From the UHGV virus genome UHGV-0150968: a stretch of 10,210 nucleotides of DNA. One strand, 5' to 3'. Below are positions 302-4,672 of this stretch, piece after piece. A program made the translations under genes and the position numbers. Origin of the DNA: a virus. How positions within the stretch are numbered: position 1 is the stretch's first letter; every line of letters begins with the position of its first letter. A model generated the notes under the pieces. The model was not told where the DNA came from and did not search any database. It worked only from the letters and a program-made list of their open reading frames with translations.

Positions 302-1261
302 ATGAAAAAAAGTGTCATCGCTGGCGTCTTTATTGCTCTGTCATTTACCACGTGTTCAGCTATCGCGAACAGCCTTGCATTATCATTAGCAAATGATGAT
401 GCAGGGAAGTTTCAACCAATACTTAATGATATTTATGGCAATAAACATGAAAACAGAGATGATTACTCACAAGGCTTATTTCTGGGATATAGCCACGATA
501 TCTCAGACTCGAGCCAATTATCTCTCCATATTGCGCAAGATATTTACTCTCCATCAGGCAGTAATAAAAGACACAACACAGCTGTAACTGGAGACAGAGC
601 TTTTAGTGCATACACTCACACTGGTATTGAATGGAACTCCCTTGCGAATGACTGGATTCGCTATCGATTAGGTACTGACATAGGTGTTGTTGGCCCCGAC
701 GCAGGCGGTCAGAAAGTACAAAATAAAGCTCATGAGATTATTGGGGCAGAAAAATATCATGCATGGGATGATCAAATAGAGAATCGCTACGGTTATACTG
801 TAAAAGGGATGCTATCCATGACACCAAGTATGGATATTTTAGGTGCTAATGTTGGATTATACCCTGAAGTTTCTGCTGTTACTGGAAACTTATTTCAATA
901 TGTAGCATATGGCGCAACCATTGCCATTGGTAATGATAAAACCTTCAATTCGGATAATGGCTTTGGTCTGCTGGCTCCCCGTGGTTTAATGCATATGTCC
1001 GATACAAGCGGATTCAAATACAAGATTTTTGCAGGTATGGAAAGACGAGATGTCAATCGCAACTATACTCTCGAAGGAAAAACAATACAGACGAAACAAA
1101 CAACAGTATCGCTGAACAAAACTGTTGATGAATATCAAGTTGGCGCAACAATTGGGTATGCACCTGTAGCCTTCACACTAGCATTTAATAAAGTAACATC
1201 AGAATTCAAGACAGGGGATGACTATTCATTTATAAATGGAGCAATCACCTTCTTTTTTTAA
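302..1261 (+). CDS. lpxR: Outer-membrane lipid A 3'-O-deacylase, LpxR family (319 aa precursor)
   Basis: N-terminal signal peptide (MKKSVIAGVFIALSFTTCSAIA); C-terminal aromatic ...ITFFF typical of OM beta-barrels; AGGAAG RBS about 10 nt upstream of ATG. If cleaved after AIA, mature residues N9, D10 and H122 coincide with the LpxR catalytic residues as I recall them (N9, D10, T34, H122), with S at position 34. Length matches Salmonella LpxR (319 aa) from memory. Confidence 0.6.
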   Translation: MKKSVIAGVFIALSFTTCSAIANSLALSLANDDAGKFQPILNDIYGNKHENRDDYSQGLFLGYSHDISDSSQLSLHIAQDIYSPSGSNKRHNTAVTGDRAFSAYTHTGIEWNSLANDWIRYRLGTDIGVVGPDAGGQKVQNKAHEIIGAEKYHAWDDQIENRYGYTVKGMLSMTPSMDILGANVGLYPEVSAVTGNLFQYVAYGATIAIGNDKTFNSDNGFGLLAPRGLMHMSDTSGFKYKIFAGMERRDVNRNYTLEGKTIQTKQTTVSLNKTVDEYQVGATIGYAPVAFTLAFNKVTSEFKTGDDYSFINGAITFFF

Positions 1262-1464: not shown

Positions 1465-2130
1465 TCATGCGCCTTCTCCCTGTACCTGAATCAATGTGAG
1501 GTTTCCGCAGAACACTGCGCCAGTATCGATATACATCTGGTTGGCAAATTTGAGTGGTTTCACTGCTGGCGTATGACCAAAGATGAACGTGTCCGCGCCT
1601 TTGATTTCTTTCACGATCCCGTCTTGTGAGTTGCTGATTCGTTCGCGGTTCCAGATTACCTGCTGATGATCAACTGGCTTTCCAAACTCGTATTTATCAC
1701 AAGGATAATCGGCGTGGCAAATGACATATTTTTTATCTTTGCTCACCAGTTCGATGATTAACGGAAGTTCTTCTGCTTTATGGGCAAGAACTTTAGCCAG
1801 AGTCTCTTTGTCGTAATCGAGATTAAAGAACCAGCCACCGCCATTAAGCAGCCAGTGATTAACGTTTCCACGCTCTGATAAGCCATCAATCATCATTTGC
1901 TCATGGTTTCCACGCACAGCTCTGAACCAGGGGAATGTGATTAATTCCAGACATTCGACGTTCTCTGTACCGCGATCAACCAAATCGCCAACCGAGATGA
2001 GCAGGTCTTTTTTGGTGTCGAATCCAATCGTATCCAGTTTGTTCATCAGGTTCGTGTAGCATCCGTGCAGGTCGCCAGCTACCCAAATATTTCGGTATTT
2101 GCTGCCATCAATTCTTTCGTAGATATTCAT
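1465..2130 (-). CDS. ninI: Ser/Thr protein phosphatase, lambda NinI (orf221) type, 221 aa
   Basis: PPP-family motifs GDLHG, GDLVDRG and GNHE are present; the protein closely resembles my recollection of lambda orf221; start ATG overlaps the ninG stop (ATGA). Confidence 0.85.
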
Positions 2131-2741
2131 GCAGCCTCACTTCTGCTGTTTCGCAGGTCTTTGAGTTTCTGTTGGTACTCTGCCTTGATCGCCTTGCACT
2201 CTTCGACAGTCCAGCGATGGCGGTTATGGTTTGATTCGATTTCGTCTACTGCTTCCTGCCCGATGCGGCTAATCAGTTCGACGCGATACGGAACGAGATT
2301 TCCGCTTTTGTGCTGGTTGCACACCACGCATTGCTTGTGAATATTGCGTTCATCAAATCGGAGTTGAGGTGCCGCAGCAGTTGTCCGGTAATGTCCGGCA
2401 TCCCACTGAGCAGACGTGAGCGTTCCGCACGAGATACATGGTAAGTCGCGGTCTCTTTCTCTGATGAAGGCGTTTACGGCTTGTTGGGCTTGTTTAATCC
2501 AGTAACTGCGGGGCTTTAAGGCGAGTTTTCGAATCTTAAGTTTATCTTTCTGTTTCTGCTCCTCTCGTCGTCGTTTCTTCTCTGCTGCTTTTTCCGCTTT
2601 TTCGCGTTCTTTACTTCGTCGTTCGAGTGCTATCTTGGTTCCACACTCTGGAGAGCACCACCACTGATTAGCGAATGCAGGGTGAAACCATTCCCGACAT
2701 TCATCGTTTTTACATCGTCTTCGCGCTGGTTTAGCCATCAT
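2127..2741 (-). CDS. ninG: NinG / Rap recombination-associated endonuclease, 204 aa
   Basis: 204 aa as in lambda NinG; N-terminus [15 protein letters not shown]...; several Cys pairs; its start overlaps the ninF stop. Confidence 0.85.
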
Positions 2742-2901
2742 CTTCTTCCTCGTGCATCGAGCTATTCGAATCGCTCATCAGCTCTGCACAGCAGTGCTCA
2801 CACACGTGAACTTCCAGCACATGCAGCTTCTGACCGCAATTAGCGCACGTTAAAGCCCGCTCGACGCTTTCTTGTTCGTAACTTCGATTTGGGTCAATCA
2901 C
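2731..2901 (-). CDS. ninF: NinF-like small Cys-rich protein (56 aa from GTG at 2901; the ORF track extends to a GTG at 2943 giving 70 aa)
   Basis: C-terminal part ([20 protein letters not shown]...EEEDDG) matches lambda NinF as I recall it. The GTG at 2901 has a GAGGAA SD 8 nt upstream and overlaps the ninE stop (GTGA); the upstream GTG has no SD. Confidence 0.6.
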
Positions 2902-3080
2902 CTTGTATTCCTCGCACGATGTCTTAGCCACCGGATATCCCACAGGTGAGCCGTGTAGTTGAAGGTTTTTACGTCAGATTCTTTTGGGATTGGCTTGCGT
3001 TTATTTCTGGAGCGTTTCGTTGGAAGGTATTTGCAGTTTTCGCAGATGATGTCGGTGAAACTTCGTCGTTGTCGCCTCAT
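2898..3080 (-). CDS. ninE: NinE, 60 aa
   Basis: 60 aa, [29 protein letters not shown]..., consistent with lambda NinE; ATG overlaps the stop of the upstream ORF (ATGA). Confidence 0.75.
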
Positions 3081-3373
3081 GCCGCCCTCCTGACGCCCTG
3101 CCCGATCGCCATCAATGCCGCTTTGGATACGATAGTAAACATCCGTCGAGGACTAATGAACGGTCGCCAAATCAGCAGCATGGAGCCTTTGCTGTTTCCC
3201 TTCTTCTCCAGCCCTGTCGATGGTTCGATAAAATTAATCCGTCCATCAGTGATAATACGAACTTCGTCAACACTCTCCAGAGCCTTGCTGAACCATCCGA
3301 CAGACATATCCTCTGGCACAAGCATCACTACACGAGAACCAGCGAGCCTGATGTGGTTAAAAGACAGGCACAA
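3077..3373 (-). CDS. Hypothetical protein upstream of ninE; start uncertain (TTG at 3373, first ATG at 3325), possibly a 5'-truncated remnant
   Basis: Its stop is coupled to the ninE start (ATGA) and its composition is protein-like, unlike the antisense frame. It has no ATG start or good SD, and the frame closes 2 codons upstream of 3373, within about 35 bp of the + strand orf28. Confidence 0.4.
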
Positions 3374-3408: not shown

Positions 3409-3495
3409 ATGGAAGAAGAATTTGAAGAGTTCGAAGAGCATCCTCAGGATGTGATGGAACAATACCAGGACTATCCGTATGACTACGACTATTGA
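3409..3495 (+). CDS. Lambda orf28-like acidic peptide (28 aa, MEEEFEEFEEHPQDVMEQYQDYPYDYDY)
   Basis: AAGGTG SD upstream; overlaps the ral start by 17 bp, as in lambda by my recollection. Confidence 0.6.
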   Translation: MEEEFEEFEEHPQDVMEQYQDYPYDYDY

Positions 3496-3679
3496 TAAAA
3501 ATCAATGGTGTGGACAATTCAAGCGATGCAATGGATGCAAGCTGCAATCGAAATGCATGGTTAAGCCTGAAGAAATGTTTCCTGTAATGGAAGATGGGAA
3601 ATATGTCGATAAATGGGCAATACGAACGACGGCAATGATTGCCAGAGAACTTGGTAAACAGAACAACAAGGCTGCCTGA
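3479..3679 (+). CDS. ral: Ral, restriction-alleviation protein, 66 aa
   Basis: Protein MTTTIDKNQWCGQFKRCNGCKLQSKC...GKQNNKAA matches lambda Ral length and sequence from memory. Confidence 0.9.
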   Translation: MTTTIDKNQWCGQFKRCNGCKLQSKCMVKPEEMFPVMEDGKYVDKWAIRTTAMIARELGKQNNKAA

Positions 3680-3696
3680 TGGTGGCCTTCATTTTT
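3668..3696 (+). terminator. Hairpin plus U-tract immediately after ral, with the stop codon in the loop
   Basis: AAGGCTGCC-TGAT-GGTGGCCTT stem-loop followed by CATTTTT; seen in the sequence. Confidence 0.5.
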
Positions 3697-3718
3697 GGCA
3701 TAAACAACAGAGGCGAAG

Positions 3719-3916
3719 ATGTTGACAGTTGGAAAGGCATATTCAACTAAAAATGGAAAGACATTTAGTTGTGAAAAAGATATTGGAGAAATAGACACTA
3801 TCTTTCCATTTGGTGGATGGGTATACAATTCTGATGGAAGCAAAGACAGATTTGCATATTACACCAGAGGAGGTACTTATAAACTAACCAAATCAGAATA
3901 TGATTTAATTATTTAG
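3719..3916 (+). CDS. Hypothetical small protein, 65 aa, no recognisable family
   Basis: ATG with GAGG SD 5 nt upstream; AT-rich coding sequence; Gly/Tyr/Lys/Thr-rich product (MLTVGKAYSTKNGKTFSCEKDIGEIDTIFPFGGWVYNSDGSKDRFAYYTRGG...). It sits in the ral-ea10 intergenic region, which is about 205 bp longer here than in lambda by my recollection of coordinates. Confidence 0.5.
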   Translation: MLTVGKAYSTKNGKTFSCEKDIGEIDTIFPFGGWVYNSDGSKDRFAYYTRGGTYKLTKSEYDLII

Positions 3917-4020
3917 CACAGAGAAGCACTGTGTATTCATTCCAACGAGTGAATACACGGAGCAATGTCGCTCGTAACTAAACAGGAGCCGACTTGTTCT
4001 GATTATTGGAAATCTTCTTT

Positions 4021-4047
4021 GCCCTCCAATGTGAGGGCGATTTTTTA
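4021..4047 (+). terminator. Intrinsic terminator (GCCCTC-CAATGT-GAGGGC then GATTTTTTA) just upstream of ea10; position fits lambda tL2a
   Basis: Perfect 6-bp GC-rich stem followed by a T-run; maps to about lambda 33,930 under the coordinate offset inferred from int to ea10. Confidence 0.6.
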
Positions 4048-4066
4048 TCTGTGAGGATATGAACAG

Positions 4067-4435
4067 ATGTCAAACATCAAAAAATACATCATTGATTACG
4101 ACTGGAAAGCATCAATAGAAATTGAAATCGACCATGACGTAATGACAGAGGAAAAACTTCACCAGATTAATAATTTCTGGTCAGACTCTGAATACCGACT
4201 CAATAAACACGGCTCTGTATTAAATGCTGTATTAATCATGCTGGCGCAACATGCTCTGCTTATAGCAATTTCAAGCGACTTAAATGCATATGGTGTTGTG
4301 TGTGAGTTCGACTGGAATGATGGAAATGGTCAGGAAGGATGGCCTCCAATGGATGGTAGCGAAGGAATAAGAATTACCGATATCGATACATCAGGAATAT
4401 TTGATTCAGATGATATGACTATCAAAGCCGCCTGA
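4067..4435 (+). CDS. ea10: Ea10 protein, 122 aa
   Basis: 122 aa as in lambda Ea10; GAGGA SD upstream. Confidence 0.85.
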   Translation: MSNIKKYIIDYDWKASIEIEIDHDVMTEEKLHQINNFWSDSEYRLNKHGSVLNAVLIMLAQHALLIAISSDLNAYGVVCEFDWNDGNGQEGWPPMDGSEGIRITDIDTSGIFDSDDMTIKAA

Positions 4436-4485: not shown

Positions 4486-4507
4486 ATGTATAAATAAGGA
4501 GCACACC

Positions 4508-4672
4508 ATGCAATATGCCATTGCAGGGTGGCCTGTTGCTGGCTGCCCTTCCGAATCTTTACTTGAACGAATCACCCGTAAATTACGTGACGGATGGAAA
4601 CGCCTTATCGACATACTTAATCAGCCAGGAGTCCCAAAAAATGGATCAAACACTTATGGCTATCCAGACTAA
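4508..4672 (+). CDS. cIII: CIII, FtsH-inhibitor that stabilises CII, 54 aa
   Basis: Below the ORF-track size cutoff; translated by hand as [54 protein letters not shown]; AAGGAG SD upstream. Confidence 0.9.
   Translation: MQYAIAGWPVAGCPSESLLERITRKLRDGWKRLIDILNQPGVPKNGSNTYGYPD

Follow-up and report, generated by a model that had tools for sequence, protein, structure and literature searches.

A rare one-gene cassette upstream of the PreS small RNA of lambdoid phages encodes a predicted small beta-barrel protein

Introduction

The leftward (pL) operon of phage lambda includes ral, a small and non-essential delayed-early accessory gene, and the interval between ral and ea10 holds PreS (LPR1), an Hfq-bound small RNA (sRNA) of about 88 nt that is processed to about 68 nt (PMC12197685; Silverman et al., bioRxiv 10.1101/2024.10.31.621285). 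According to these reports, the 3' end of PreS is the tL2a terminator (bioRxiv 10.1101/2024.10.31.621285), and the sRNA is a product of the lytic cycle that stimulates the translation of dnaN and helps the replication of phage DNA (PMC12197685; bioRxiv 10.1101/2024.10.31.621285). In this work we have analysed a stretch of 10,210 nucleotides of the virus genome UHGV-0150968 (from here on, the window), in which an open reading frame (ORF) of 65 amino acids (aa) lies between ral and ea10. Judged from comparison of the sequences, the DNA in excess over lambda is a one-gene mosaic cassette in a variable slot of the lambdoid pL operon with conserved anchors, and the 65-aa ORF is one rare occupant of this slot. 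Its product is predicted to be a small SH3/Tudor-like beta-barrel, which we read, with a probability of roughly 0.6, as an early lytic accessory protein that acts by binding a cellular partner.

We found nothing on this gene in the literature on PhiR11_1, on ECOR13/mEp332 and on lambdoid anti-defence, and in one further study the flanking genes ea10 and ral serve as construct sites only (PMC2327257).

Results

The segment absent from lambda

The plus strand of the window corresponds to the leftward (pL) strand of lambda. The spacer between ral and ea10 measures 387 nt in the window and 182 nt in lambda NC_001416, where ral lies at 34087-34287 and ea10 at 33536-33904; an earlier note on this DNA had given these same coordinates and spacer lengths, and they agree with the reference. 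Homology to lambda extends up to position 3711 (...CATAAACAACAGA) and starts again at 3926 (GCACTGTGTATTC), and between these points the lambda 9-mer ATAAACACT (34046-34054, leftward strand) is replaced by the 214 nt of window positions 3712-3925, a net difference of +205 nt. This is the size that had been estimated for the extra DNA, and the same sequence is not found between ral and ea10 in lambda, which has only the 9-mer there. The ends of the cassette were read by eye from the alignments; MAFFT misplaced the gap. The elements of the cassette are the following.

3712-3925, plus strand: segment absent from lambda, identical in phages 2G7b, PhiR11_1 and PhiR11_1_star
3710-3713, plus strand: Shine-Dalgarno sequence GAGG, 5 nt before the ATG, with GA shared with lambda and GG provided by the insert
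3719-3916, plus strand: gene of the 65-aa protein (PHROG 15499), with an ATG start; predicted small SH3/Tudor-like beta-barrel
3707-3712, plus strand: left copy of ACAGAG, a 6-nt direct repeat found on both sides of the cassette, from reading the sequence
3918-3923, plus strand: right copy of ACAGAG, from reading the sequence, 211 nt from the left copy

The three phages that carry the identical cassette are plaque-forming lambdoid phages. The insert is mildly AT-rich (GC content of 0.33-0.35, against 0.38-0.43 in the flanks), and the compact arrangement that had been described beforehand, a GAGG Shine-Dalgarno sequence followed by a 198-bp AT-rich ORF, is what the sequence contains. From ea10 to int the window is collinear with lambda within 1 bp, the lambda and window coordinates adding up to 37971 at the start of ea10 and to 37972 at the start of int, inside the 1-2 bp proposed in the earlier note.

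Lambda has one related copy of the ACAGAG repeat. The repeat accounts for most of the lambda junction, with 6 nt left over, and this suggests that microhomology at ACAGAG connects the cassette-bearing and the lambda forms, although the pair of 6-mers may be due to chance. The difference may have arisen by an insertion or by a deletion. The placement given by MAFFT, in which 9-10 nt of lambda (AATAAACACT) would be a remnant of the ORF-internal AATAGACACT, was not adopted: the 9/10 match may be fortuitous and the deletion path is inconsistent.

Coding capacity of the ORF

The 65-aa ORF is very probably a real translated gene, because its alleles show an excess of synonymous changes, homologues of the same size share conserved motifs and the protein has a confidently predicted fold. 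The allele set comprised 16 copies (the window, six complete Escherichia coli genomes and nine IMG/VR contigs), which resolve into ten distinct alleles and differ at 15 sites. Synonymous third positions account for nine of these sites, with 10 changes, and non-synonymous changes for the other six, whereas only 21% of changes made at random are expected to be synonymous (binomial P=3e-4). The pairwise pN/pS ratio is about 0.13-0.16, and one pair of alleles differs by eight synonymous and no non-synonymous changes. The possibility, raised in the earlier note, that related prophages might not keep the frame open was not borne out, as it is intact in six complete E. coli genomes and in phages.

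An exhaustive HMMER search recovered about 27 distant homologues of 53-102 aa with 34-69% identity, which share the pattern Y8, N12-G13, P30-F31, G33, G40, D43-R44, A46, G52, Y54 and D62; Y8, R44, G52 and Y54 are invariant among them. A word-indexed search returned a single 90% cluster only, with 37 members, and the exact protein is present on 419 contigs, nearly all of them from Escherichia. A 64-aa form (P0014), consistent with a start at the second codon, occurs on 67 contigs. The long proteins in the HMMER list (SPRY and Rib repeat proteins of 693-2,147 aa) were discounted as relatives, being repeat or compositional matches. Two antisense ORFs (3502-3843 and 3561-3746, minus strand) were likewise discounted, given that the substitution pattern fits the plus frame.

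Family and predicted fold

PHROGs was the sole library with a match to the 65-aa protein: residues 1-65 align to positions 1-65 of the 65 in the profile of PHROG 15499, a family annotated as of unknown function (E=2e-48, 163 bits). The protein is identical to gp42 of 2G7b (YP_009910013.1) and to XSB41437.1 of PhiR11_1, both annotated as hypothetical. The earlier statement that the ORF belongs to no recognised family has thus to be corrected: it is a member of PHROG 15499 and public records carry it as a hypothetical protein. Annotation of small phage genes of this kind is inconsistent. When all 28 family members were compared with Pfam, only stray sub-threshold matches appeared.

AlphaFold2, run with an alignment of 17 sequences, gave a compact beta structure with a predicted local distance difference test score (pLDDT) of 97.3, a predicted template modelling score (pTM) of 0.83 and four strands called by DSSP; from the single sequence the pLDDT was 48. 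Foldseek found no significant match of this predicted fold in the Protein Data Bank (PDB), and the matches in BFVD (TM scores of 0.7-0.8) were uncharacterised phage proteins only. The predicted fold class says that the protein could be a small binding module, and no more. Its isoelectric point (pI) is 7.8, with a net charge of about +0.5 at pH 7.

A variable slot in the pL operon

The cassette lies between the following elements, and the PreS region is considered further below.

3479-3679, plus strand: ral (restriction alleviation, 66 aa), from the ORF list; the ral region is 98.9% identical to that of lambda, and the gene is annotated Ral in lambda, PhiR11_1 and 2G7b
3668-3697, plus strand: terminator-like hairpin (3668-3689) and T run of the left linker, from the terminator scan, overlapping the ral stop
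4067-4435, plus strand: ea10 (122 aa, DUF2528), the downstream gene of the slot

The constant flanks of the slot are the hairpin at the stop of the upstream gene and a block of about 120 nt that runs from GCACTGTG to the tL2a hairpin (3926-4046). The left linker hairpin is kept even without ral upstream, as in PKF8, LCP17S3 and MS20659. The gene 5' of the ORF can be ral, an unrelated 83-aa gene or an Nmad5-family gene, and the gene 3' of it can be ea10, a TolA-like gene, a superinfection-exclusion (sie) gene, a 56-aa gene or cIII. Because the flanking non-coding modules stay constant while the gene contents change, we consider the slot a site of gene exchange. In E. coli MS20659 (1847-2470 of the locus) the gene that replaces ral codes for an Nmad5-family putative nucleotide-modification protein, which is another candidate anti-restriction gene. 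In HK97-like and Stx phages, namely HK97 (1034-1504 of the locus), 933W and Huey, the slot between N and the PreS block is occupied by an unrelated and uncharacterised protein of 156 aa without a Pfam match. Homology between the 65-aa ORF and HK97 gp45 was rejected (hhalign probability of 0.04%).

Among 5,426 complete E. coli genomes, eight carry the cassette, six intact and two (CE10 and N32) truncated by an insertion sequence (IS) of the IS3 family. In these two the 3' part of the ORF is fused to the IS end; both are cerebrospinal fluid isolates, CE10 from neonatal meningitis. In 2G7b and PhiR11_1 the gene order is cI - N - (sieB) - ral - ORF - ea10 - gam - bet - exo, and in all the intact relatives examined the ORF belongs to the leftward operon and comes after the repressor and the gene in the N position. 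The distant homologues are likewise found in phage early regions, among small genes; in a Pseudomonas fulva prophage, for example, the homologue lies after an S24 repressor and before AAA_24/SSB. A scan of genome contigs with the 69%-identical relative P0017 as the query found nothing.

PreS and the 3' flank

The earlier note had placed the ORF between a ral terminator and a tL2a-like terminator. Both hairpins are there (3668-3689 and 4019-4040), but the description was incomplete, as tL2a is also the 3' end of PreS.

3959-4047, plus strand: PreS/LPR1 sRNA gene, with an approximate 5' end, placed by counting the published length of about 88 nt back from where the tL2a T run ends
4019-4046, plus strand: tL2a intrinsic terminator (hairpin 4019-4040, T run 4041-4046), from the terminator scan; the 3' end of PreS according to bioRxiv 10.1101/2024.10.31.621285
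3931-3958, plus strand: 12-bp hairpin in the interval from the ORF stop to PreS, from RNA folding, identical in lambda, HK97 and 933W

PreS of the window shows one difference from that of lambda, A4029 for G, in the terminator loop. Rfam 15 has no family for PreS, and in the five RefSeq matches listed the sRNA is unannotated, with no feature under the match. Further downstream, Rfam recognises Lambda_thermo, the cIII thermoregulator, at 4495-4553 (88.5 bits), as expected of a lambda-like cIII leader.

The ORF stop is 42 nt upstream of the estimated PreS 5' end in 9 of 9 IMG/VR loci. This 42-nt stretch (3917-3958) is invariant over 16 loci, although variation at synonymous positions of the neighbouring ORF reaches 20%; it may be an element for the processing or stability of PreS or an anchor for recombination. 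We counted about 3,200 copies of the PreS block, spread over 2,237 of the 5,426 complete E. coli genomes; the 65-aa ORF accompanies about 0.25% of these copies. Furthermore, no PreS-like sequence adjoins the distant homologues at six loci that represent four distinct contexts. Because the ORF accompanies so few PreS copies and the examined distant homologues have no such neighbour, the linkage between the ORF and PreS is read as positional, with PreS as a probable recombination anchor, and not as functional.

The window prophage

The earlier note had assumed a normal pL region. The breakpoints indicate otherwise: pL, N, the immunity region and the replication genes have been deleted, and the sequence upstream of ral consists of the following.

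302-1261, plus strand: LpxR lipid A deacylase, from Pfam
1465-2130, minus strand: NinI-like phosphatase, from Pfam
2127-2741, minus strand: NinG, from Pfam
2898-3080, minus strand: NinE, from Pfam
3077-3373, minus strand: C-terminal half only of a phage Dam methylase, from Pfam
3330-3331, no strand: deletion junction, which joins the truncated dam gene of a phage nin region (minus strand) to lambda-like sequence some 150 nt upstream of ral

Homology to the nin region stops at 3331 and homology to lambda starts at 3329-3331. Since sieB, N, pL, the immunity region (cI, cro and cII are missing), O and P have been deleted, the window prophage is defective, a deletion derivative. The 3330/3331 junction was not found in any of the 5,426 complete E. 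coli genomes. A search for promoter-like sites on the plus strand between 1200 and 4600 gave none save one weak match far upstream, at 2203. The window copy of the 65-aa gene is identical to the copy in viable phages.

Discussion

The 65-aa ORF of 2G7b, of PhiR11_1 and of the E. coli prophages follows pL and N in the same orientation; these are the elements that the window prophage has lost. In intact phages such as 2G7b and PhiR11_1 it would be made only when N-antiterminated transcription from pL passes the ral hairpin, and the protein would thus be a delayed-early product of the lytic cycle. The mRNA could end at PreS/tL2a or could itself be processed into PreS. The barrel would work as a small module that binds, early in the lytic cycle, to a macromolecule of the host or of the phage, and the most probable class of action would be the neutralisation of a host factor, for counter-defence or for host takeover. 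A host-directed accessory role is our best guess because the gene has ral, gam, kil, cIII and sie as neighbours and its homologues occupy early regions in unrelated phages. That the protein serves specifically in counter-defence is a more doubtful proposition; the anti-defence idea is plausible, derives from position alone and should be taken as speculation and not as a result. It is also only a tentative suggestion that the barrel founds an uncharacterised counter-defence or host-takeover family, swapped as a cassette beside ral, which would neutralise a specific immunity or housekeeping factor of E. coli early in lysis.

Several observations weigh against an early lytic accessory role. In complete E. 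coli genomes only 8 PreS linkers out of about 3,200 carry the cassette. In CE10 and N32 (about 1247-2500 of these loci) the IS3-family element has taken away the first 84 nt of the cassette together with all the sequence that preceded it, and in two IMG/VR contigs (L027 and L029) the ATG at locus position 3998 has become ACG, so that the TTG of codon 2 would be the start. Because the cassette is rare, two copies are disrupted by IS3 elements and one allele group lacks the ATG, selection for it may be weak or conditional. The Prokaryotic Genome Annotation Pipeline (PGAP) does not annotate the ORF in 4 of the 6 complete genomes with an intact copy (L006, L007, L008 and L009), and calls it in the other two. 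The ORF has no match in Pfam or NCBIfam, nor in the defence hidden Markov models of PADLOC-DB at E values up to 10, and a profile search of PDB sequences gave nothing below E=0.37. Ocr and ArdA, the DNA mimics, are strongly acidic, whereas this protein is near neutral; with a pI of 7.8 it is not an acidic mimic of that type. In the window itself the gene is probably silent because the prophage lacks pL and N; deprived of its natural promoter, it has probably been kept only because the deletion is recent.

It could be argued that the ORF is a chance frame in junk DNA acquired by illegitimate recombination, which would agree with its rarity, with its restriction mainly to Escherichia at more than 88% identity, with its frequent omission by PGAP and with the IS insertions or lost ATG of some copies. 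However, such a frame would hardly show an excess of synonymous changes, homologues of equal length with conserved motifs in unrelated phages at 34-69% identity, a very high-confidence predicted structure from just 17 sequences and a good Shine-Dalgarno sequence at the right spacing, and we regard this explanation as largely refuted and very improbable. A gene that protects the lysogen, whether by superinfection exclusion or as a defence moron, and that does not serve the lytic phage, is also unlikely. Exclusion genes are indeed close by (sieB, and in LCP17S3 a superinfection exclusion protein directly downstream), the gene is AT-rich and as patchily spread as a moron, and it has remained intact in the defective prophage of the window. 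But an upstream promoter-like site on the strand of the ORF was not found, there is no PADLOC match, neither the sequence nor the predicted all-beta model shows an apparent membrane segment or signal, and a gene that runs in the direction of the pL operon and comes after a terminator-like hairpin should be off when the lysogen is repressed.

The barrel could also help PreS, by binding the RNA or Hfq and tuning the processing, stability or targets of the sRNA, or the inserted mRNA could alter the excision of PreS from the pL transcript. The ORF is constantly 42 nt upstream with an invariant spacer and hairpin, PreS would form the 3' end of the ORF mRNA, and SH3-like barrels include the RNA-binding Sm, KOW and Tudor classes. 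Nevertheless, nearly all of the roughly 3,200 PreS copies do without the ORF, the distant homologues (six loci, four contexts) have no PreS-like sequence downstream, the predicted model has neither an N-terminal helix nor an Sm motif, and the same linkage would be expected if PreS were a mere conserved anchor, as HK97 gp45 abuts PreS too. We therefore find it improbable that the protein is a partner of PreS, and less likely than membership in a counter-defence or takeover family. A binder of RNA polymerase or of DNA transactions that regulates transcription, recombination or replication, comparable to the Tudor-like domains with which UvrD/PcrA, CarD and Mfd bind RNA polymerase or to the KOW of NusG, would suit a gene placed between the antitermination and recombination modules whose homologues are near ERF, SSB and AAA_24 genes, but Foldseek finds nothing, and this reading has a slim chance of being right.

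Taken as a whole, the finding is one of ordinary lambdoid mosaicism: a small early accessory gene that had already been deposited and grouped (PHROG 15499). To this we add the exact ends of the cassette, the proof of coding, a confident predicted fold, the recognition of PreS as the 3' neighbour and the description of a deletion-derivative prophage. The cassette offers a clean candidate that is tractable by experiment, a single gene of 198 nt beside a proven anti-restriction gene, with a confidently predicted fold and isogenic-like natural pairs (lambda versus 2G7b or PhiR11_1). The segment upstream of PreS, a gene-exchange slot with anchors on both sides, could be useful for mining lambdoid prophages for accessory genes. 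Moreover, a functional sRNA follows directly after the protein gene, so that the content of the cassette might affect PreS biogenesis.

Among known systems, Ral of lambda (and Lar of Rac), a small early anti-restriction protein, shares the setting: it belongs to the same operon, its gene adjoins the ORF and its size is 66 versus 65 aa. There is no evident sequence likeness between the two, a statement made without a direct alignment, and the Pfam and NCBIfam scans of the ORF did not place it in the Ral/Lar family. The same 65-aa protein, or one at least 95% identical, is represented in E. coli by WP_140412816.1 and WP_156628888.1, in the same slot after ral and before ea10 or PreS. HK97 gp45 and 933W L0079 (156-157 aa) share the slot directly upstream of the PreS linker, their stop abutting the conserved GCACTGTG..., but they follow N directly without ral, unlike the 65-aa ORF. 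Phage morons are similar in being single AT-rich genes with a patchy distribution between two conserved genes; they have their own promoter and terminator and are expressed from the repressed prophage, whereas no promoter was found for this cassette and its terminator is the resident tL2a/PreS, which is also present in cassette-less lambda, so the features of a moron in that sense were not found. PreS/LPR1 itself occurs with or without the cassette, which adds a protein gene upstream and leaves the sRNA uninterrupted. Finally, the SH3/Tudor-like barrels (GK0453/YfhH, the C-terminal Tudor domain of UvrD/PcrA, the RID of CarD, KOW, PsaE and YorP of SPbeta) resemble the 65-aa protein in predicted topology, in which about 60 residues form four to five bent strands.

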